Virus record (IMG/VR): IMGVR_UViG_2623620496_000009
Source of the DNA: a virus
Lineage: Duplodnaviria; Heunggongvirae; Uroviricota; Caudoviricetes
DNA length: 15,806 bases
Strand: one strand, 5' to 3'
The translations under genes and the position numbers were made by a program. Within the stretch, counting starts at the first letter, position 1; the number at the start of each line of letters is the position of its first letter. Below the pieces are notes generated by a model. That model saw only the letters and a list, made by a program, of their open reading frames with translations, made no database searches and had not been told where the DNA came from. Of the stretch, positions 2,621 through 15,806 are shown piece by piece.

Positions 2621-2732
2621 AACTGAAGTTGCCCTGAAAATGAAATTTTTTTGCACAACCGCAGAACTTTTCCGCAGGGCATCAGTCTTAATTAATGCCA
2701 CTGCTTTTCTTTGATGTCCCCATTTTGTGGAG

Positions 2733-2775
2733 CCCATCAACCCCGCCATTTCGGTTCAAGGTTGATGGGTTTTTT
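2733..2775 (+). terminator. Rho-independent terminator-like hairpin in the ybjL / prophage-end spacer
   Basis: Perfect 10-bp inverted repeat cccatcaacc (2733-2742) / ggttgatggg (2760-2769) with a 17-nt loop, immediately followed by tttttt (2770-2775). Confidence 0.55.
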
Positions 2776-2855
2776 GTTGCCTAAAATTTATTCTATTTAA
2801 AATCATGAGGTTAGAAGCACTGTTTTTTAACGATGGCGACAAAATGGCGGCAGCG

Positions 2856-3074
2856 TCAAAGAGAGAGCGCCACCTGTCCTGATTTCATTGGATGCGGCTG
2901 AACCGGATTTGACTCTTTTGGCGTTGCAATCGAACGAACAAAAGTTTCATGGGTAACAAAAGTATGGCTGCAGTTAATATTCTGGCACTGGTTGTAACGC
3001 TCTTTGGTCAATGAAGATACCTGAAAACTGCTGCGAGTATGGGCGGCACTTCCACACAGTGGGCAAATCATCAT
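2856..3074 (-). CDS. ogr: Late-gene transcriptional activator Ogr/Delta family (zinc finger)
   Basis: 72-aa product from the ATG at 3072-3074, MMICPLCGSAAH...YNQCQNINCSHTF, with the Cys-X2-Cys ... Cys-X4-Cys arrangement and strong resemblance to P2 Ogr. The six-frame ORF extends to a GTG at 3107, but the ATG is preceded by a GGGGAG Shine-Dalgarno-like sequence. Confidence 0.85.
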   Translation of the reverse strand: MMICPLCGSAAHTRSSFQVSSLTKERYNQCQNINCSHTFVTHETFVRSIATPKESNPVQPHPMKSGQVALSL

Positions 3075-3111
3075 TTTTCGAGTTCTCCCCATTTTTGCTA
3101 AATTCACAATA

Positions 3112-4747: not shown

Positions 4748-7700
4748 GCGTCGTATCCCCCCTGATCGCTGTAGTTACTCCTGGCTTTTGCCTTCAGCCT
4801 GCGTTCACGTTCATCAAGCTGGCGTGCCACCTCCCGCGCAATATCCTGCGCACTTTGTCCTGGCTGCATCTGAATGATGATCTGCGTCGGTGCCTCAATC
4901 CTGTAAACGGGCGGCACAGTGGCTGCACGACTCACCATCGCTTCGCCGCCTTTCGCGGGAAGTGCCAAAGGATGCAACGGTGGAAGCTCTGCAGGCGCGG
5001 CAGCAACGCCCATCATTCCGGCAACAACGGCAGCCAGTGCAGCTGTATTTCTCCGGCTGGTCACATTTGCCGGGCCGTTAACAATTTCCGGCCCGTTTTC
5101 ACCGACGATGCCAAACTGCCCGCGCGGGATATAGCCGCCGCTGTCATACATCCCCGCAAAGCCATATCCCCATGACGGAAAACCACCCGATGGCATCATC
5201 ACTTTACCGTTTGTATTCACCGTCGCAGGTTGCTGACGCGTCACACTTTCCGGTAGTTTCGCCTTTGCGGCCTCTTTACTGACAACGCCGAGTTTCTCCA
5301 GCAACCAGGAAACGCCGGATTTCAGGGAGTCCAGCGGATGCATGACCATATTCAGCCCTTCCGCCAGTGCCTCCCCGAATCGCCGCCCCATTGCCGCTGC
5401 ACTCTGCAGTTCGGCAGAGGTTGACTTAACGGGCGTCAGCAGATCAGTAAACCAGCCCCACAGCGCCTGTACTTTGTCGCCAATCCACTGGAACACGGGC
5501 TTAAGCGGTTCGAATGCTGCACTGACGGGACCTGCCGCCGCTTTGAATCCTTCCACCACGCCACCAAGAAATGCGGTGATGGGTTGCCAGTATTTCCAGA
5601 CAACCAGCGCCACGCCCGCCAGTGCAGTAACCACAAGACCTATCGGACTGAGCAGAGCACCTAACAGACCAGATACGGCATACAGGGCAACGCGCAGCAT
5701 CGCCAGTGGACCAGATGCCAGTACTCGCAGCACCGTGCCTGCGGCGGCCAGTCCACCACGCAGTACCGCCAGAGGATTCATAAACATCACAGCAACAGCA
5801 CGTAAACCGGATAATCCAGACCGCAAAAGTGCAACCGGCGCACCTGCTACAGTTTTCAGGACATTTCCCGTCAGTGATGCCGTGCGGCGCAAAGACGACA
5901 ACGGCGCAGTAAGTAAACCCGCAGCGTGGCCCGATGAAGCAAGCCCGCGTCGCAGCAGTGCCAGTGGTGCGCCAGCCAGCCAGGACAACGCGCTGCTGGT
6001 TCGAGTTACTGCTGCCGTAACGGAAGGTAACGTTTTGATACCCAGCACAGAGAACCCCAGACGGATCACTGCCAGCGGCCCCAGCACTGCAGCTAACACC
6101 ACCGCTAAGGTGCCGAGGCCCACGGTAACCGCAGCCACAACAGCCGCCGCTTTCATCAGTGTGCCCGTCAGTTCCGGGTTAGCTTCCACCCAGCGACGCA
6201 ACGCCCCCGTGACGCTTTTCACCGTGAACAGAATATCCATCAGCGGCTGGCGCAGCGTTTCGCCCAGGCTGCTGAAGGTGTTCTGCGCTCCGGTTTTGAC
6301 CAGCAACCACTGAGCAGAAAGTGAGTCTTTGTTGATGTCGGATTCTTTCTGCATGGAGCCGAGCGCATCATTGCCCGCTGTCAGTTTTAGCTGGCGCTGC
6401 AGTTCCGGCAGGTTGTTTGCCAGTTTCGCCGCGTCATCGCCAAACTCTTTACCAAACAACATGGTCATGGCAGACAGGCGCTTATCCTGCGGCAGCGCGT
6501 TCACCTTCTCCAGCACGCGCTGGATGGTTCCCATCGCATCCTTCGTCATCTGCTTTTCAATCACTTCAGGATTGAGTTTCAGCAGATTCATCCCTTCAAA
6601 GAAACTCTTGCTCTGCATGGTGGCAATGGACAATTCACGCACCATCGCGTTTGCTGCACTGGCTGCAACCTCTGGCGCAGCGCCCAGTGTCAGGAAGGTG
6701 GAACCCAGCGCCGCCGCTTTACGATAATCCAGACGATCAGCCACACCGCCCAGGCGTTGCATGACATCAATGATGTCTGCCCCTTTCGACATGGCGTTAT
6801 CATCCAGATAGTTCAGCGCATCACCGAGCTGTTCAATATTGCGGGTAGGGATTTTGTAGAGCTGGGCGATTTTCCCCAGACTTTCTGACAGTTCATCCGC
6901 TGGCAGCTCAAAGGCTGTTGCCGCCTTTGCTGCCGTACTGGCGAAGGCCAGCAGGTCACGTTTCTGGTCCTCCCAGCTGTCGTCAGGGTTTGCAACGTTC
7001 ATACGCGCACCACCTTCAACCAGTGCAGCGAAGTCCACCGCACCGTTTTCCATCGGCAACTGTTCGCTGGCAGCTTTGATGGCATCCTGCATTTCATAAA
7101 AACGTGCAGTGCGGTTGCCATTATCGTCACGCAGACCATTGACCTGCTTTGCCACACCTTTCATGGCATCTTCCATGCTGGTATAGCTTTTTACTGCCGC
7201 CATCACTGGCGTCCCCATTGCCAGCCCTGCCGCCGTGGTGGTGGCTCCGGTTCCTGCGATGCGATCGCGCACCTCCAGCGAACGGGCATAACTGGCACGC
7301 GCTGCATTCATCCTGCGCTGAGCTTCCCCCAGTCGCTTCAGCCGCGCCTCCTGTTTCGACAGTTCCTGGTTATAACGTGATGTTTCACGGGCTAAACGGG
7401 CAGTTGCTCCCGCATCATCTTTCGCAGAAATTCCCGCCCGGTACAGTTCTGCACGCACAAGCGCCGTTTGCTTCTGCAAATATTTTTGTTGTTCTTCCAG
7501 GCGTTGGACTGCCAGTGTTTGCCGACCTAAAGCCACAAGGTGCCGTTGTGATGGTTGTTCCATCGCTTCCAGCTCAGAACTAAGCAAATTTGCCTTCTGT
7601 CTGGCATAGTTCAGCCTGTCGCCTAACTTTTTGTTATCGGCCTGCAGCTTGCGAAATTTTTCCAGGCTGTTACCCGCCTGATTGAGTTGCTTTAATGCGT

Positions 7701-8829: not shown

Positions 8830-10002
8830 TTACGCGCTGACCTGGCTGGAGAAATTCACCAGGTACTGATCGGTGATGCGCTGACGCAGCATCAGGTTTT
8901 CAAGTGGCGGCACTGGTGTGTAGTCGTAGTCGATGGTGAGTTTTCCAGCTTTCAGAGTGTCTTTGTCGTTCACCGACTCATCCAGCCAGCAATCGCCACC
9001 AATGAGATAGCCCTGACTGATCAGGCTGCGCATTTTGGCGCGGATACCTTCGATAATGTCGCGGGCCAGCGACGGATTCAGCGGTTTGTCGACAGCCCAC
9101 ATTGGCGCTTCTGCCATCGTGTCCATCAGCACCTGCGCCGTGCGGGTGTTGTTTTCGAAGGCAAAGAGTGGGTCATCACTCAGACAGCGGGAACCCCAGA
9201 AGCGAAAGCCGTCTTTGCGGATAAGTGTGGTAACATCGTTCTGGTTAAGCAGTCCCGCATCAGTTGCCGGGTCCTGCAGATCCCAGAACACATCAGCAGA
9301 AATTCCAGTGACACCGTTCACGCCCACGTTGGACAGGCTTTTGTGCCACCCTGTCTGCTCATCAATTTTGGCACGCAGACCAAGCGCACGGGCGGTGGCA
9401 TATGCCGTTGCGTCGGCATTCAGCACCGTGTCCCAACCAGTAAAGTCAGGCCAAATCAGCATCCCTTCACGCTGACTGAAGTTTTCACGGTAAGTGATCG
9501 CCTCCTGCACCGTCTTGCAGCCATACGCTGACAGGTAAGCAAACCCACGCAGGCTTTGCGCCACGCCCAGCAACTCAGTAGCAACGGCTTTATTATCGTG
9601 CCCCGGCACGCCGAGGATGCGCGGTTTAACACCGAGCTGTGACTGGGCAGATAACAGGGCTTTCATACCAGTTTTTTTACCTTCAGCAGTCACTGCGCCG
9701 ATGATATTGGTCGTGGTTTCTTCTTCCGTTTCACCCTGCGGCACACGCACAACAACGGTCACGGGTTTTGCCTGGTCAGCGATGGCATCCAGCGAGCGGG
9801 CCAGCGTACCGGATTCACCCGCCTTACCGCTGGCAGTAAGCACATCAGTGATTAGCACGGGTTTATTAAGAGGGAACATTTTTGCATCGGCATCATCGCC
9901 CGTGCAGACCATGCCCACGATGGCGGTGCTCACCGTGGTAATGGATCGAGTGCCTTCGTTGACTTCAACAACGCGCACTCCGTGGTGGTAATCCTGAGCC
10001 AT
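8830..10002 (-). CDS. FI: Contractile tail sheath protein FI
   Basis: 390-aa ORF with strong resemblance to P2 gpFI ([19 protein letters not shown]..., [13 protein letters not shown]). An AGGAGG Shine-Dalgarno sequence lies 9 nt upstream of the ATG. Confidence 0.95.
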
Positions 10003-10078
10003 AGTGGCGAACCTCCTGATTGGATTAGGCTTCGCCCTATGTTGAAGTGATTGTGTCTGACAAGCAGCTAAGCGCAGT

Positions 10079-10096
10079 TGTACCGTTATTCACACA
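10079..10096 (-). promoter_or_regulatory. Candidate Ogr-type activator site (TGT-N12-ACA) of a PF-like late promoter
   Basis: TGTaccgttattcacACA lies in the 106-bp spacer between the tail fibre assembly gene and FI, centred about 85 bp upstream of the FI ATG. No convincing -10 hexamer was found by eye. Confidence 0.35.
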
Positions 10097-10108
10097 AAAT
10101 GACGGTAT

Positions 10109-10522
10109 TTATCTGCTTGCAGGGAAAACAGGCCAAATAATATCAGGTGCGGTGCTGGTATCTGTTGCCGTCACAGCCTCGATATAATCCAGCACAACGT
10201 TAAGTCGGGTAGTTTCCTCTTGCGTCAGTTTGCGCCCGGCCTGCAGCTTTAACTGAATCACGCTGATATTGACCATTGCTGCGTCTATCAACGACTGTTT
10301 TTTCTGTTCAGCGTCAGCTACCAGTTCATCATGAGAACGTTCCGGAGTGGGTGGTGCAGTAAATACCCCGTCTGAATACGCCCAGCCGATTCCGGGCTGC
10401 TCACTGATATCAGAAATATTAATGAGCTGCAGATTATCCGGCACAGTGAATTCATCCTCGCCATCCCAGACAATGACATTCACAACCATCCCATTTTCAA
10501 TAACTGCATATGACGCATTCAT
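10109..10522 (-). CDS. G: Tail fibre assembly protein (Caudovirales Tfa family), in the P2 G position
   Basis: 137-aa product from the ATG at 10520-10522, preceded by GAGGAG. The C-terminus ...DTSTAPDIIWPVFP is the characteristic Tfa ending. The start overlaps the H stop (TAATG). The six-frame ORF extends 8 codons further to a TTG. Confidence 0.85.
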   Translation of the reverse strand: MNASYAVIENGMVVNVIVWDGEDEFTVPDNLQLINISDISEQPGIGWAYSDGVFTAPPTPERSHDELVADAEQKKQSLIDAAMVNISVIQLKLQAGRKLTQEETTRLNVVLDYIEAVTATDTSTAPDIIWPVFPASR

Positions 10523-12441
10523 TATGCAAACTCCTCGATAATACAAACCCCATCAGCACCTTTCCCGCCCGTCATACTGGTTCCGCTATAACCTGCATCG
10601 TATGCACCACCTCCGCCTGAACCAAATGCCCTGCCTCTAACGCCACCGCCAGCGCCTGCGCGTCCACCGCCACCCCAGTACGATGTTCCGCCTTCACCGC
10701 TGACGCCGATATTTCCGGACTGACCGTCGCCTCCATCTCCACCAGTGATGCGGATATCGCCAGTACTCGGCACACCTCCGTTACCGCCGTTTGTGTTTGT
10801 AACACCCACTTTCCCGCCACCTTCGCCACCAGGAGCAATTAACGATGCGAATACGCTATTCCCGCCCCTGGTGCCGTTCGTTGCACTAACACCACCGGCC
10901 CCACCTGCGCCGATAGTGACTGGATAACTATTCTGTGTCGGGGTCATTATTGAAATTATTGTTCCACCGGCCCCACCGCCAGCACCGAAAAACGTTTCAT
11001 TATTGGATGTAGCCTTGCAGCCGCCCCCTCCGCCACCGCCGCCCGTTATTGTGACCCTGATCCGTTTTGTTTCTGGTGATGGGGTATACGTACCTGATGA
11101 CGCGAAAGCCCGGGTACTCAGCCGGCGTCCCACGTATCCGCTTGTATCTCCCAAACCAAGATAACGAATAACCTCCTGTTTGCTTGTTTTAGCCAGAATA
11201 TCCCGTCCAACATTAGTCAGGGTTGTCAGGCTGGCTGTATCATTCCCCGTAAAATACGGTAGTTTGTCTGCCGCAGTGGCAAGGCCTGCCAGTGCGGTCA
11301 GTGTGGCGTCGGCAGGTTGTTTTCCATTGGCAAGGTCATATACAGCCTTCACAGCTTTTGGTGTGGCAGCCTGCGTTTCTGACGTGCTGTTAGTGGCGCT
11401 GCTGAGTTGCACGGTACCTTTTACCGTCAGTGAAGCTGCAGGCACATCCGTTATCTGGCTCCACGGGTGCGTGTGACTGACAGGTGCCTTACCTGCTGCA
11501 AGGTCATATGCCGCCTTCACTGCCTTTGGTGTGGCAGCCTGCGTTTCTGACGTGCTGTTAGTGGCGCTGCTGAGTTGCACGGTGCCTTTTACCGTCAGTG
11601 AAGCTGCAGGCACATCCGTTATCTGATTCCACGGGTGTGTGTGACTGACAGGTGCCTTACCTGCTGCAAGGTCATATACAGCCTTCACTGCCTTTGGAGT
11701 GGCAGCCTGCGTTTCTGATGTGCTGTTAGTGGCGCTGCTGAGTTGCACGGTGCCTTTTACCGTCAGCGAGGCTGCAGGTACACCTGTTATCTGATTCCAC
11801 GGGTGTGTGTGACTGGCGGATGCTTTACCTGCTGCAAGATCATATGCAGCCTTCACAGCCTTCGGTGTTGCGGCCAGTATTTCGGATTCACTGTTGGTCG
11901 CACTGCTTAACTGAGTAAAACCTTTTGCGGTCAGCGAGGCGTCCGGGTGACGTCGTGACTGTTCGTGCTCTGATATTTTGTCATCCACATACTTGCGGGT
12001 TGCCAGCACTACAGCAGGGTCGATTTTCAGGATGATATTGTCCGTACTGCTGGTAATCAGCACCATGCGCACGGTCTGGGTACGCCCACTGCCTTCAGCC
12101 AGTTGCGGCTTATAGCTTTCCGGGCAGTTACCCACGGCAATCAATGCCCCGGACTCATCAAACAAGCCCACTTCACGTATCCACCAACCGCCCTCGTTTT
12201 CAGGGATCACCTGTTCAGCAATAATCTGGCTGCTGTTCTGCGGGTCGATATAAAGCATATTCAGCGCAGCCCGGCGTTTCTCATTTACCAGTGCCGTCTG
12301 CTTTGCGTCCGGCGTTGGCAATACTCCGCCGCCATCGCCCACCGCCATATGGGTAATTTTTAGCGGCACACCGAGCGCGGCGGCGCTGGCAAGTTTCGCC
12401 GCGCCAATATCCGTCAGCAGGGTATAAAATTTTGTGCTCAT
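10522..12441 (-). CDS. H: Tail fibre protein (P2 gpH-like N-terminus, Phage_fiber_2-type repeats, Gly-rich C-terminal domain)
   Basis: 639-aa ORF. The N-terminal ~165 aa resemble the P2 H baseplate-attachment region. It is followed by four tandem ~56-aa repeats (LSSATNSTSETQAATPKAVKA...HTHPWNQIT) and a glycine-rich C-terminal third. Confidence 0.9.
   Translation of the reverse strand: MSTKFYTLLTDIGAAKLASAAALGVPLKITHMAVGDGGGVLPTPDAKQTALVNEKRRAALNMLYIDPQNSSQIIAEQVIPENEGGWWIREVGLFDESGALIAVGNCPESYKPQLAEGSGRTQTVRMVLITSSTDNIILKIDPAVVLATRKYVDDKISEHEQSRRHPDASLTAKGFTQLSSATNSESEILAATPKAVKAAYDLAAGKASASHTHPWNQITGVPAASLTVKGTVQLSSATNSTSETQAATPKAVKAVYDLAAGKAPVSHTHPWNQITDVPAASLTVKGTVQLSSATNSTSETQAATPKAVKAAYDLAAGKAPVSHTHPWSQITDVPAASLTVKGTVQLSSATNSTSETQAATPKAVKAVYDLANGKQPADATLTALAGLATAADKLPYFTGNDTASLTTLTNVGRDILAKTSKQEVIRYLGLGDTSGYVGRRLSTRAFASSGTYTPSPETKRIRVTITGGGGGGGGCKATSNNETFFGAGGGAGGTIISIMTPTQNSYPVTIGAGGAGGVSATNGTRGGNSVFASLIAPGGEGGGKVGVTNTNGGNGGVPSTGDIRITGGDGGDGQSGNIGVSGEGGTSYWGGGGRAGAGGGVRGRAFGSGGGGAYDAGYSGTSMTGGKGADGVCIIEEFA
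11326..11940 (-). repeat. Tandem 168-bp in-frame coding repeats in the tail fibre gene (three full copies plus one partial)
   Basis: Near-identical DNA units, e.g. gccttcac[a/t]gc[t/c]tttgg[t/a]gtggcagcctgcgtttctga[c/t]gtgctgttagtggcgctgctgagttgcacggt, recurring about every 168 bp. Confidence 0.85.
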
Positions 12442-13944: not shown

Positions 13945-14290
13945 TCTCTGCTCCTGTTGATACTGAAAGGGACACAGGCACACCGTTATTCCGCCGCCCG
14001 GTCAGCTCCACCACCATTGAACCGTCAAAATTGCTGTTAATAGTGATGGAATCCAGCGTCAGCCGTGGCTCCCAGCGACTCAGTGCCACATACACAGCCG
14101 ACATAACCTGCAGGCGTAACGCCGGATTTTGTGGCTGATCTATCAGTGCCGACAGCAGGGAACCATATTCCCGACGGGCAATGCGGCTACCCTGCGGCGT
14201 CAGCAGAATGTCCCGCACCGACTGGCGCAGATGGTCAATATCAGTAATGGCTTTACCGTTGGTATTGTTCATCCCGCTATAAAGCGTCAT
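13931..14290 (-). CDS. W: Baseplate wedge protein W (GPW/gp25 family)
   Basis: 119-aa ORF, P2 gpW-like. Its ATG overlaps the V stop (ATGA). Confidence 0.85.
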   Translation of the reverse strand: MTLYSGMNNTNGKAITDIDHLRQSVRDILLTPQGSRIARREYGSLLSALIDQPQNPALRLQVMSAVYVALSRWEPRLTLDSITINSNFDGSMVVELTGRRNNGVPVSLSVSTGAENGSD

Positions 14291-14865
14291 ACCGGGCCTC
14301 CGGTTGTGTCGCCGCCTTTCAGGACGCCAGTATGCTGATGCGCATCAACCACGATCCCGTTAGAACTCATTGCTCCGCCACCCTGGGTAACGCCACCATT
14401 GATCACCACTTCGCTGTTAATGCGCGTGCGGTCAGCCTCCAGTACAAACTCACTGGTTTTCATGGTGATGTTGTCAGCGGCCTCAATGACCATTGATTTG
14501 ATGCCCCTGACATACCAGCGCCCGGTGGCGGGTTCATATTCAAACCAGCCACCGTCCGGGTATTCCGTCACGTTGCCGTCCTCAGAGCCTGAAGGTGGCG
14601 GAAACTGGTTTGAGTAGACCGCAGGCAGGGCAAACGCGGTTTCCAGATTGCCGCCAAGGCTGAACAGCACAACCTGCTCACCCACAGACGGTTTCCACCA
14701 GGTGCGCGATTTGCCCGCGCGCAGTGTCAGCCAGTTAATCCAGTTGGTTTCGAGGTCGCCAGTTTTCACCCGACACAGCCAGTTTGCCCTGTCCACTTCG
14801 GTGACTACACCTGTGCGGATCAGGTTGGTGATAAGGCGCATGATTTCGGTTAATTGTGCGTTCAT
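14287..14865 (-). CDS. V: Baseplate spike/hub assembly protein V
   Basis: 192-aa ORF, P2 gpV-like (MNAQLTEIMRLITNLIRTGVVTEVD...). It is the first gene of the V-W-J-I-H-G block. Confidence 0.9.
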   Translation of the reverse strand: MNAQLTEIMRLITNLIRTGVVTEVDRANWLCRVKTGDLETNWINWLTLRAGKSRTWWKPSVGEQVVLFSLGGNLETAFALPAVYSNQFPPPSGSEDGNVTEYPDGGWFEYEPATGRWYVRGIKSMVIEAADNITMKTSEFVLEADRTRINSEVVINGGVTQGGGAMSSNGIVVDAHQHTGVLKGGDTTGGPV

Positions 14866-14911
14866 AGGGAAAGGTTGCCATCAATAGCAAGCAGTAGACA
14901 GCCTTTGTAAT

Positions 14912-14929
14912 TGTATTAGACATAGAACA
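14912..14929 (-). promoter_or_regulatory. Possible Ogr-type dyad (TGT-N12-ACA) upstream of V
   Basis: TGTattagacatagaACA is centred about 55 bp upstream of the V ATG. That spacing is unusual if the dyad sits near -55 from the transcription start, so this may be a chance match. Confidence 0.25.
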
Positions 14930-15085
14930 AATGCCTTTCAATGGTCTGCGTTAGAGCATTAATACGTTGCAAAAGGTCGAATGACGTTGCGCAAGTTAAG
15001 AAGTTCAATGCTCTTAAAAAAGCACTTGAAAGCAACGCCTTTAATTATTAAAAGCCAATTAATTTAGGCGGTTACTATGTTATCT

Positions 15086-15114
15086 TTGACACAAAAGATG
15101 TTTATTGACAATAT
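15086..15114 (+). promoter_or_regulatory. Candidate sigma70 promoter for the DUF262 gene
   Basis: TTGACA (15086-15091), a 17-bp spacer, then CAATAT (15109-15114). A second TTGACA lies at 15105-15110. An AAGGAG Shine-Dalgarno sequence at 15131-15136 sits 7 nt before the ATG. Confidence 0.35.
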
Positions 15115-15143
15115 ATAAGTTCAATCTAACAAGGAGAAAAATT

Positions 15144-15806
15144 ATGCCAAATGAAAATCTTGATATTGACTCAAGGACTACCGAGCAATTATACGAATGG
15201 TATTTGCAAGGAAATTTGATAGTCAATAGACGTTATCAAAGGAAACTTGTATGGTCTCTAGAAGAAAAGACTTCTTTAATATCTTCTATGCTGCAACAAT
15301 ATCCTATTCCGTTATTATTATTTGTTACCATCAATGAACAAAGAGAAATATTGGATGGAATGCAAAGATTAGAAGCAATTATGAGCTTCATCGAACAGAG
15401 ATTTTCATTAGATGGACAATATTTTGATTTGGACTCTATAGCTTTAACAAAACAACTTAAAGATAATGGAACTTTAATTCAGAAAGAACCAATCCTTTCC
15501 CGTGATTCTTCAGCAATTATTGCACGTTATCGATTTGCAATATCAGAATATAGCTCCACAAATGAAAATATTGACGAAGTATTCAGACGAATAAACTCAA
15601 ACGGGAAGATTTTATCCAAACAAGAATTACGTAGTGCAGGAACAGTTAGTAACTTCTCTGAACTGGTCAGATCGATATCAACATCGATCAGAGGTGATAC
15701 TAGCCATTCTGACATTATGAATCTCGGTAATGACTCCAACTTACTGATAGTGTTTTATGTTCAGATAATGCCCGATGACTTTGTCATGCAGCTCCACCGA
15801 TTTTGA
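15144..15806 (+). CDS. DUF262 / ParB-like nuclease-superfamily protein (GmrSD N-terminal-type domain), 220 aa
   Basis: ATG at 15144 with a strong RBS. Motifs read directly from the translation: YQRKLVW, QQYPIP, ILDGMQRL (DGQQR-like), and FRRINSNGKILSKQELRSA (the second DUF262 signature). The gene is AT-rich and divergent from the phage V operon. Its stop codon is the last three bases of the window. Confidence 0.7.
   Translation: MPNENLDIDSRTTEQLYEWYLQGNLIVNRRYQRKLVWSLEEKTSLISSMLQQYPIPLLLFVTINEQREILDGMQRLEAIMSFIEQRFSLDGQYFDLDSIALTKQLKDNGTLIQKEPILSRDSSAIIARYRFAISEYSSTNENIDEVFRRINSNGKILSKQELRSAGTVSNFSELVRSISTSIRGDTSHSDIMNLGNDSNLLIVFYVQIMPDDFVMQLHRF

Follow-up and report, generated by a model that had tools for sequence, protein, structure and literature searches.

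A probable IS1-killed DUF262-Schlafen cassette in the S-V slot of a P2-like prophage

Introduction

The DNA directly upstream of the baseplate gene V in one P2-like prophage is AT-rich and carries a short opposite-strand reading frame with a DUF262 domain, and the question is whether this frame opens a larger defence island or represents something simpler. The window analysed here is the whole stretch of 15,806 nucleotides of the IMG/VR virus record IMGVR_UViG_2623620496_000009. An initial annotation, made from the letters of the sequence alone, proposed that the AT-rich DNA is the edge of an accessory or defence island and that its reading frame encodes a stand-alone DUF262 protein of 220 amino acids, the partner genes of which lie beyond the window. 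The analysis leads to another reading. Positions 14884-15806 most likely constitute the V-proximal part of a single-gene DUF262-Schlafen cassette, situated in the S-V slot of the prophage and killed by the insertion element IS1. Both the defence family and the hotspot are known, and the window copy is a disrupted example of the family and not the edge of a new island.

Composition and boundaries of the AT-rich stretch

V heads the V-W-J-I-H-G late operon, and its annotation follows RefSeq loci that are identical to the window across the region compared. The encoded protein shares 92.7% identity with V of phage 500465-1 and 84% with V of Fels-2. The prophage genes from ogr to V have a mean G+C of 0.551 (sd 0.035), and the value falls to 0.34 over 14866-15143 and 0.33 over 15144-15725, which places the AT-rich stretch at z ~ -6. 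The drop to about one-third G+C upstream of V that had been estimated by eye is thus confirmed (~55% to 33%), as is the spacer of 278 bp (14866-15143) that separates the V start codon, at 14865 on the minus strand, from the plus-strand ATG at 15144.

The conserved V leader is the last DNA that is homologous to phages with an empty S-V junction, and the cassette starts immediately after it (Table 1). The whole cassette measures 2.2 kb and, in intact relatives, reaches into the last ~36 codons of S, the 3' end of which is AT-rich and divergent in these relatives. A Shine-Dalgarno sequence, AAGGAG, is situated at 15131-15136 ahead of the ATG. A scan of 14800-15250 returned no consensus sigma-70 promoter on the plus strand and no terminator; the same scan gave two consensus promoter matches, both on the minus strand and not above chance expectation. 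No tRNA genes were found within the window.

Table 1. Features of the window around the V start codon, the cassette and the IS1 end.
Feature	Coordinates	Strand	Basis
Baseplate assembly gene V, P2-like (Fels-2 / 500465-1-like) prophage	14287..14865	-	ORF list, RefSeq loci, protein identity
Conserved V leader and ribosome-binding stretch	14866..14883	-	blastn homology to 500465-1 / Fels-2 stops at 14883
AT-rich replacement cassette, in-window part (33% G+C)	14884..15725	.	composition; boundaries against empty-site phage
TGT-N12-ACA dyad (TGTTCTATGTCTAATACA in V sense), probable Ogr/late-activator site of P_V	14912..14929	-	spacing to V ATG
Upstream region of the DUF262 gene	14930..15143	+	sequence; promoter scan
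Codons 1-194 of the 591-codon DUF262-ParBDB-Schlafen gene	15144..15725	+	Pfam; identity to intact allele; motifs
IS1 right-end terminus (inverted repeat GGTAATGACTCC...), inverted relative to the window	15726..15806	-	IS1 matches; divergence point

IS1 insertion and the 220-aa reading frame

The last 81 bases of the window do not belong to the DUF262 gene. Positions 15726-15806 match IS1 copies at 71,562 places in 4963 of 5426 E. coli genomes, and the features lying under these matches are annotated as IS1 family transposase. The intact allele is 100% identical to the window up to 15725 and departs from it exactly at 15726, which locates the insertion after nucleotide 582 of the gene, so that the window stops 81 bp into the element. 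The reading frame that starts at 15144 therefore comprises 194 real codons, 26 codons encoded by IS1 and a TGA (15804-15806) that is also encoded by IS1. Since the last 26 codons and the stop are supplied by the element, the frame is an artefact, and the stand-alone protein of the initial annotation dissolves into the first third of a gene and a piece of IS1. On the evidence of the sequence, the gene in the window is a pseudogene and the 220-aa frame is a product of truncation and read-through. The sensor module is cut off from the middle and effector domains, and the window copy would consequently be dead. RefSeq labels an analogous IS1-cut copy a pseudogene.

The gene family has received at least three independent IS1 insertions. 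Besides the one after nucleotide 582, an insertion after nucleotide 502, in the orientation opposite to that of the window, is present in two other E. coli genomes, and a paralogue on IncFII plasmids has IS1 at nucleotides 1276-1284. In the locus L002, an independent IS1 of 768 bp in the same gene is flanked by a 9-bp target duplication, CAGGAACAG; positions 15726-15806 differ from this IS1 by 1 mismatch in 81 bases.

Domain architecture of the intact protein

The first 194 residues, which the window retains, match Pfam GmrSD_N/DUF262 at E = 4.9e-19, and the recognition of a DUF262/ParB-like defence-type gene in the initial annotation holds. They make up a complete ParB-like DUF262 NTPase module with the motifs QRxxxW (residues 32-37), DGMQR (71-75) and FxxxN (147-151), as these motifs are defined in PMC12065111; the window fragment includes neither the middle, helical domain nor the Schlafen effector. 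In the intact protein of 591 amino acids, WP_100266644.1, Pfam assigns GmrSD_N to residues 26-165 (1.7e-17) and SLFN_AlbA_2 (PF04326) to residues 419-575 (3.8e-6). The latter match is modest, at 27.9 bits against a gathering cutoff of 25.3, and the same domain is precomputed on most homologues. The Pfam search of the intact protein gave no match to DUF1524 or HNH at E <= 0.1, and NCBIfam gave no match for it. The PADLOC model for NsnA covers residues 9-348 (3e-23), which correspond to DUF262 and the domain that follows it, and the PD-T4-2_A model also matches the N-terminal part. The middle domain is helical, of the ParBDB type found in NsnA, SspE and GmrSD, and is probably DNA-binding.

The AlphaFold model of the intact protein (pLDDT 86, pTM 0.83) agrees with this arrangement. 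A Foldseek comparison indicates that its N-terminal part resembles BrxU and the ParB/Noc CTPases, and that its C-terminal part resembles the AlbA_2 domain of SAMD9, DIP2311 (3lmm) and SLFN5/11/13/14; run on the whole multidomain model, the comparison returned weak E-values with probabilities of 0.96-1.0. A profile search against PDB sequences found BrxU alone, weakly, together with one photoreceptor match that is probably spurious. The order of DUF262, helical domain and Schlafen/AlbA_2 is consistent across four independent methods.

The catalytic motif of Schlafen nucleases, Ex4(E/D)xK (PMC13056530), is present in the intact protein in its Ex4DxK form as EQPSYDFK at residues 419-426. Across 28 homologues, E419, D424 and K426 never vary, an acidic residue always occupies position 470, and the three DUF262 motifs are likewise invariant. 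This conservation extends to homologues with as little as 38% identity, which come from Pseudomonas, Comamonas and cyanobacteria, and the full-length architecture of 590-600 amino acids is kept across proteobacteria and cyanobacteria. The homologue search revealed no full-length family of ~200 amino acids with this sequence. Sequence and predicted structure together thus assign the intact protein to the pSlfn7 (DUF262-Slfn) architecture of the prokaryotic Schlafen defence proteins.

The S-V slot and the context of the intact gene

The initial annotation placed S and R of P2 at this position, yet in P2 the genes S and V are not adjacent; a non-essential, opposite-strand gene, orf30, is situated between them. 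Three regions are named as variable in P2-like phages, the orf30 locus along with TO and Z (PMC3091744), and the position is accordingly one of the classic P2 variable loci from which it had been excluded. Fels-2 and 500465-1 have 68 bp at the S-V junction. A survey of 127 S-V loci found 73 empty and 54 occupied, the occupied ones holding 38 cargo clusters. The cargo has a G+C of 31-44% at 53 of the 54 occupied loci, the exception being Duganella with 60%, and it includes AriA/AriB (PARIS), PtuA/PtuB (Septu), SIR2, ApeA-HEPN, a KAP NTPase, and EcoRII with Dcm. P2 orf30 and several of the clusters have no recognisable function. Bona fide defence systems are among this cargo, and the position is a cargo and defence slot, as the initial annotation had proposed.

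The locus is present in 28 complete E. coli genomes, in 26 of which the gene is uninterrupted, encodes 591 amino acids and has no companion between V and S/R of a complete P2-like prophage. In E. coli AR_0019, for instance, the intact 591-aa gene stands alone between V and S/R in a complete P2-like prophage, and S and R resume 76 bp past its stop codon. Prophages of Enterobacter hormaechei carry copies with 89% identity in the same slot and with the same layout, and three IMG/VR contigs hold the intact gene. In E. coli the prophage is integrated next to ybjL/rybB. Homologues also occur on plasmids and integrase islands, a patchy and mobile distribution. Neither the homologue of Vibrio owensii nor the paralogue on IncFII plasmids has an adjacent nuclease gene or an adjacent NsnB- or NsnC-like gene. 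Truncated copies of the plasmid paralogue make up 740 of 847 records, and they trace to a single ancestral insertion of IS1 that gave rise to a resistance region.

Because S and R resume in intact relatives after one gene, with no partner in between, the multi-gene system that was expected past position 15806 is contradicted. The DUF1524/HNH or ATPase partner gene envisaged for it is absent, and the effector is instead the Schlafen/AlbA_2 domain of the same polypeptide. What stands of the proposed island edge is the horizontal acquisition of accessory DNA; its extent is that of a single-gene cassette.

A P_V activator site on the cassette

The centre of the TGT-N12-ACA dyad of Table 1 lies 55.5 bp from the V ATG on its upstream side, and the P2 record places its annotated activator binding site at an equal distance. 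A dyad at that distance (+-1) is present at all 73 empty and at 44 of the 54 occupied S-V junctions, against a chance of ~0.001 per locus. It is the probable Ogr/late-activator site of the promoter P_V, judged by its sequence and spacing, and it is located on the cassette itself. Both this activator site and the 3' end of S are present on the cassette in AT-rich versions of its own. The boundaries against the empty-site phage and the retained dyad point to homologous exchange among P2-like phages as the probable route by which the cassette arrived.

Each S-V cassette brings its own Ogr-type P_V operator, which is divergent from the defence gene. As the operator divergently abuts this gene, activation of the late promoter could silence the defence gene in the lytic cycle of the phage itself. 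We consider this switch-off rather unlikely, and likewise the related proposal that the repeated IS1 hits reflect selection against a Schlafen tRNase that is costly or self-targeting; such a tRNase might, for example, be triggered by the induction of its own prophage or by plasmid transfer. An ordinary alternative for the repeated hits is the preference of IS1 for AT-rich DNA.

Proposed mechanism and alternative explanations

The mechanism proposed for the intact protein is drawn from characterized relatives. During lysogeny, the gene would be expressed divergently from the late operon, and the DUF262/ParBDB module would sense a feature of the nucleic acid of an infecting phage. Nucleotide binding or hydrolysis by this module would switch on the Schlafen domain, which would then cut tRNA, so that translation shuts down and the phage yield is lowered. 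The sensor role is inferred by analogy with that described for DUF262 (PMC12065111), and tRNA as the target is likewise proposed by analogy. EcoSlfn7, a DUF262-Slfn fusion of E. coli, defends against phages, with a 538-fold effect against T7, and RorSlfn5, an Ig-like-fused Schlafen and not a DUF262 fusion, is a trigger-activated, Mn-dependent tRNase (PMC13056530). Two of the seven Schlafen systems tested by the authors of that study defended, and the DUF262-Slfn architecture is thus no guarantee of activity.

Four other explanations were weighed against that of an IS1-killed single-gene cassette. On the first, the frame opens a multi-gene defence system: a small, self-standing DUF262 protein is encoded first, and a DUF1524/HNH nuclease or ATPase partner follows beyond the window. 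This explanation draws on the partners with which DUF262 proteins act in Menshen (NsnABC), PD-T4-2 and Dazbog (PMC12065111) and on the PADLOC matches of the N-terminal part; it is hardly credible, given that the stop of the frame falls inside IS1, that intact loci have one 591-aa gene between V and S in an insert of 2.2 kb, and that no NsnB/NsnC-like or nuclease gene is adjacent, the Vibrio owensii and IncFII contexts included. It is also very doubtful that the 194-residue fragment and its 26-residue tail have been neo-functionalised, as a stand-alone ParB-like NTPase or a dominant-negative regulator. All three DUF262 motifs are present and the plasmid paralogue is very often truncated, but the single ancestral insertion explains that frequency, the effector is lost, and the lost middle domain is needed for DNA binding in SspE (PMC12065111); the pseudogene label given by RefSeq to an IS1-cut copy and the lack of a ~200-aa full-length family among the homologues point the same way.

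The two remaining explanations concern the intact protein. It could be a GmrSD-like type IV modification-dependent restriction enzyme, in which AlbA_2 binds or cuts DNA in place of DUF1524. This would fit the label that RefSeq gives the product, "GmrSD restriction endonuclease domain-containing protein", BrxU as the closest solved structure, the DNA binding of AlbA_2 domains such as that of SAMD9 (7ksp), and the sensing of modified DNA by DUF262 in GmrSD and SspE (PMC12065111). We regard it as improbable, since the defining DUF1524 His-Me nuclease is absent and the catalytic motif of Schlafen RNases is preserved in the C-terminal domain, without variation from phylum to phylum. To our knowledge, T7 and T3 are without hypermodified bases. 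EcoSlfn7 is strongest against these two phages, and RorSlfn5 is inactive on DNA (PMC13056530). A moron with no part in defence, encoding for instance a protein of lysogenic conversion or regulation, would be compatible with the annotation of many bacterial AlbA_2 proteins as DNA-binding regulators, with the ~30% of prokaryotic Schlafen genes that lie away from defence genes (PMC13056530), and with P2 orf30 and the other functionally opaque cargo of the slot. The invariant nuclease and NTPase motifs, the defence by EcoSlfn7, a protein of the same architecture, the bona fide defence systems in which the slot is rich, and the mobile distribution across prophages, plasmids and integrase islands make this explanation extremely unlikely. 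An IS1-killed DUF262-Schlafen cassette remains the preferred reading of the locus.

Implications

The locus has a few practical implications, all of them modest. RefSeq names the family "GmrSD restriction endonuclease", which is misleading, as the name covers the N-terminal domain only, and the effector is a Schlafen-type RNase domain with no HNH. Where a contig ends in a short DUF262 reading frame, truncation by an insertion sequence should be looked for before the frame is called a stand-alone sensor whose partner is missing. As a defence hotspot, the S-V (orf30) slot is rich and has received less study than others, and it could be mined in the manner of tin/old; a small sample already contains PARIS, Septu, SIR2, HEPN, KAP-NTPase and EcoRII, as well as many unannotated clusters. 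The intact allele, for example that of E. coli AR_0019, offers a second DUF262-Schlafen protein for studying what DUF262 senses.

Comparison with known systems

The disruption resembles IS1 insertion mutations in that a canonical terminus abuts the target, and differs in that the window holds 81 bp of the element, with the second junction, the remainder of the gene and S/R of this genome beyond it; an IS1-mediated deletion or inversion may lie past 15806 in this genome. As a locus, the cassette is similar to that of P2 orf30: both lie between the O-operon terminator after S and P_V before V, on the opposite strand, and both are AT-rich and absent from close relatives. Orf30 itself, for which Pfam and PADLOC give no match, bears no relation to the present cargo, and the exchanged block here also replaces the operator region of P_V and the last ~36 codons of S. 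The other variable regions of P2-like phages are TO (tin/old) and Z (Z/fun).

At the protein level, GmrSD, BrxU and SspE share the N-terminal ParB-like DUF262 with QRxxxW, DGxQR and FxxxN, followed by a helical middle domain, and of the solved structures it is BrxU that matches best, in structure as well as in sequence. In contrast to these enzymes, the present protein has no DUF1524/HNH and ends in a Schlafen RNase-type effector, the likely target of which is RNA and not modified DNA. Membership in GmrSD was considered and rejected: DUF262 is present, and the DUF1524 His-Me finger is not. NsnA of Menshen and PD-T4-2_A give the best PADLOC model matches, whereas the NsnB ABC-ATPase, NsnC and the PD-T4-2 partner are absent and the effector is fused in cis. 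Membership in Menshen (NsnABC) and PD-T4-2 was also rejected, as the neighbours are phage V and S and no partner genes.

The closest likeness is to EcoSlfn7/pSlfn7 (Perez Taboada et al., Nat Microbiol 2026, PMC13056530), a likeness of domain architecture. The window copy differs from EcoSlfn7 in being cut by IS1 after codon 194, without its Schlafen domain. Otherwise the two systems have in common DUF262 and Schlafen/AlbA_2 in one polypeptide with the Ex4(E/D)xK motif, occurrence in E. coli on mobile elements, and the sufficiency of a single gene.

Genomic setting and truncation of the reading frame

The AT-rich locus upstream of V holds a DUF262-Schlafen defence cassette of one gene, which IS1 has inactivated in this P2-like prophage. 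The G+C content falls from a mean of 55.1% in the ogr-to-V block (300-bp windows, sd 3.5) to 34% in the spacer upstream of V and 33% in 15144-15725, about 6 sd lower. The compositional drop reported in the initial annotation is thereby borne out, as are the 278-bp intergenic region and the opposite-strand gene with DUF262 signatures; in a profile search, residues 1-194 of this ORF match Pfam GmrSD_N (DUF262) with E = 4.9e-19. The stand-alone 220-aa DUF262 protein described there is, nevertheless, an artefact. A 107-base query over the last 81 bases of the window gave 71,562 matches, spread over 4963 of the 5426 complete E. coli genomes and each in an annotated IS1 transposase region, and this segment differs by one base from the annotated IS1 of a sister genome. 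Window and intact allele are identical through 15725, and the divergence starts exactly at 15726. Thus, only 194 codons are genuine, and the next 26 codons and the TGA (15804-15806) are derived from IS1. The window ends within IS1, as expected of a contig that breaks at a repeat.

The ORF list, the RefSeq annotation of near-identical genomes and Rfam place E. coli chromosomal grxA, ybjM, ybjL and the RybB sRNA gene at one side of the window, followed by the prophage late region with ogr, D, U, T, E, FII, FI, G, H, I, J, W and V, all on the minus strand. At 92.7% identity, the V proteins of Escherichia phage 500465-1 and of Klebsiella phages are its nearest relatives among sequenced phages; those of the Fels-2/SopEPhi group share 84%. 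rybB is situated between ybjL and ogr (2856-3107), and the prophage begins at most ~80 bp from its 3' end. This suggests a probable integration site at or within the rybB terminator, with the sRNA gene serving this phage as tRNA genes serve others. The Z/fun slot between G (tail-fibre assembly; 10109-10546) and FI (sheath; 8830-10002) measures merely ~106 bp (10003-10108), so this classic P2 cargo site is empty here.

Coordinates of the principal features (window coordinates unless a locus is named)
Feature	Location	Strand	Remarks
RybB sRNA gene	2700-2778	+	Rfam RF00110, 105 bits
V	14287-14865	-	ORF list, RefSeq annotation of near-identical genomes
Spacer upstream of V	14866-15143		278 bp
TGT-N12-ACA dyad	14912-14929		centre 55.5 bp from V ATG; in AT-rich DNA
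ORF start ATG	15144	+	preceded by AAGGAG
IS1 terminus	15726-15806		last 81 bases of window; sequence matches to E. coli IS1
IS1 of sister E. coli locus (L002, NZ_CP031134)	15047-15814		equivalent to window 15645/15646, 80 bp upstream of window's insertion
Plasmid paralogue, E. coli IncFII plasmids	L156 4289-6061; L157 3001-4311; L158 2996-3499		
S-V cargo without Pfam match (examples)	L026:6042-6953; L082:5363-6871; L098:5716-6975; L121:5170-6951; L129:5215-6960		

Intact locus and domain architecture

The same locus occurs in 28 complete E. coli genomes at 97-100% identity, and the gene is uninterrupted in 26 of them. In E. coli AR_0019, the intact gene (1776 bp, 591 aa, WP_100266644.1) stands alone between V and the tail completion genes S/R; the P2-like prophage is complete and continues past S/R with lysis genes, head genes and its remaining genes. 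89%-identical copies occupy the same slot in P2-like prophages of Enterobacter hormaechei. A 60% homologue adjoins an integrase in Vibrio owensii with no defence-type partner gene beside it, and IncFII plasmids carry a paralogue (69% DNA identity) that adjoins pemIK. The defence gene and S have convergent stops separated by about 75-76 bp. In locus L001 this spacer (16321-16395, outside the window) contains an inverted repeat, AGACGAGAGG...CCTCCTCGTCT, that looks like a shared bidirectional terminator replacing the O-operon terminator annotated in P2.

The 220-aa frame had been read as a stand-alone DUF262 protein, of a domain type known from GmrSD-type enzymes and other anti-phage systems, and as part of a multi-gene system continuing beyond the window. 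The DUF262 module is confirmed by Pfam, and RefSeq names the 591-aa protein after GmrSD. Pfam places GmrSD_N at residues 26-165 of that protein and SLFN_AlbA_2, above the gathering score, at residues 419-575, and finds no DUF1524 or HNH domain; this refutes the GmrSD reading. The multi-gene reading is refuted by the intact loci, where S directly follows the lone gene and AR_0019 has no partner gene between V and S/R.

The best PADLOC models for the 591-aa protein are Menshen NsnA (residues 9-348, 3e-23) and PD-T4-2_A, the latter for the N-terminal part only. DUF262 is defined by the motifs QRxxxW, DGxQR and FxxxN, and a helical DNA-binding ‘ParBDB’ domain follows it in NsnA, SspE, DndB and GmrSD (PMC12065111); a catalytic Ex4(E/D)xK motif is common to prokaryotic Schlafen nucleases (PMC13056530). 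The 591-aa protein has every one of these motifs (Q32-R33...W37, D71-G-M-Q-R75, F147...N151 and E419...D424-F-K426), and they are invariant across 28 full-length homologues with identity down to 38%, drawn from Enterobacterales, Vibrio, Aeromonas, Pseudomonas, Comamonas, Sulfitobacter and cyanobacteria; all of these have an acidic residue at position 470. A confident AlphaFold2 model built from this alignment (pLDDT 86, pTM 0.83) was compared with the PDB by Foldseek. For the N-terminal part the matches are BrxU, which belongs to the GmrSD family, and ParB/Noc CTPases; for the C-terminal part they are the AlbA_2 domain of SAMD9, DIP2311 and the SLFN5/11/13/14 nuclease domains. Taken together, the Pfam, PADLOC, motif and Foldseek matches establish the architecture as DUF262-ParBDB-Schlafen.

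The S-V slot and its cassettes

The initial annotation placed this position outside the classic P2 variable loci, which is incorrect. P2 itself carries the non-essential, opposite-strand gene orf30 here, flanked on one side by the O-operon terminator that follows S and on the other by the V-promoter activator site. Foreign genes in P2-like phages are commonly carried at three places, namely the TO and Z regions and orf30 (PMC3091744). The TO hotspot was the sole one analysed by Rousset et al. 2022. Further defence hotspots, less populated and lying ‘within the tail genes’, are mentioned in a NAR paper of September 2026 that covers 1511 P2-like prophages and ties these hotspots to known sites of horizontally acquired genes. 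The slot has been known as variable since the P2 genome work, and its status as a minor defence hotspot is a recent recognition.

For a survey of the slot, 146 loci with V homologues (L010-L155) were fetched, each oriented with V on the plus strand and starting near position 7001, and the distance from S stop to V start was measured. The distance is bimodal, either 50-79 bp (nearly always 68 bp) or 0.55-3.8 kb, and the slot is occupied in 54 of 127 loci (21/78 IMG/VR contigs and 33/49 species-representative genomes). The cargo comprises 62 ORFs in 38 sequence clusters, 52 of the ORFs lying opposite in strand to V. In 53 of the 54 slots its G+C content lies at 31-44% and that of the flanks at 51-63%; only a Duganella locus, at 60%, departs from this. 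Recognisable cargo includes AriA+AriB (PARIS), PtuA+PtuB (Septu) and EcoRII endonuclease with Dcm methylase. Two kinds of SIR2 protein, an ApeA-type HEPN protein, a KAP NTPase (PADLOC candidate PDC-S49), an FRG-domain protein, DUF2971+DUF5677, DUF6216 proteins and an EEP-family nuclease are also found. In the domain and defence-model scans, many clusters have no match, as is the case for P2 Orf30; about a dozen, of 150-600 aa, lack a Pfam match, with the PADLOC scan covering a minority of these, and are candidate unknown defence genes. The defence systems in the slot support the earlier intuition of a defence locus; the proposed edge of a larger island is instead a one-slot hotspot inside the phage. 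The feature is of some use in practice, both to annotators and as a lead for mining the S-V slot.

DNA homology to the empty-site phage 500465-1 ends 18 bp upstream of the V ATG (14883) and, at the other side, ~110 bp inside S, whose last ~36 codons are AT-rich and divergent with S length unchanged. The dyad upstream of V lies at the distance of the annotated P2 activator binding site and of the 500465-1 and Fels-2 dyads. In the survey it is found at 55.5 bp (±1) in 73/73 empty junctions and 44/54 occupied ones, being absent from that position in ten occupied loci (L021, L026, L049, L061, L093, L120, L126, L132, L150 and L152). Its inner 12 bases are cassette-specific, and the mean G+C of the 57 bp around it is 34% in occupied versus 54% in empty loci. 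From these sequence comparisons we infer that recombination in the conserved S body and at the V start would transfer cassettes from one P2-like phage to another, each bringing along a predicted functional late-promoter operator.

Repeated IS1 insertion

E. coli CFSAN064035 and 22AR0322 carry IS1 in the same prophage gene after nt 502, in the opposite orientation and with the 9-bp duplication CAGGAACAG. The different site (nt 502 versus nt 582) and orientation make the insertion in the window an independent event. The plasmid paralogue is present in about 800 of 5426 E. coli genomes and is full length in 107 of 847 records. Its common truncated forms end at nt 1284 or start at nt 1276, an overlap of 9 bp as in an IS1 target duplication, and lie beside IS1 remnants, then TEM-1, IS26 and CTX-M modules. 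These features point to a single old IS1 insertion, which seems to have seeded the resistance region. The gene family has therefore received at least three independent IS1 hits, two chromosomal and one in the plasmid paralogue. The repeated hits are most simply explained by the preference of IS1 for AT-rich targets; selection against a costly tRNase is a less probable alternative.

Relation to known Schlafen defence proteins

A March 2026 study in Nat Microbiol (PMC13056530) sorts prokaryotic Schlafens into 55 domain architectures, with a 1.8% share for DUF262 fusions. The mechanism work in that study was carried out on a different fusion, RorSlfn5. A phage tail-assembly chaperone activates this protein, which then cuts the anticodon arms of tRNA in a reaction that depends on Mn and requires the Ex4DxK residues; it has no action on DNA. 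By analogy, the intact protein most likely employs DUF262 and ParBDB as a nucleotide-dependent sensor module that would control a Schlafen tRNase. The direct evidence for the 591-aa protein is its architecture and conservation; the defence and RNase activities belong to relatives, and we infer the sensing step. The cassette family has one experimentally validated E. coli member, and the copy in the window is broken, the defence function of the intact allele being putative. The validated member, EcoSlfn7, is an E. coli DUF262 fusion whose defence effect was strongest on T7 (538-fold; PMC13056530); it could be the present allele, its plasmid paralogue or yet another one, and resembles the 591-aa protein in its described architecture.
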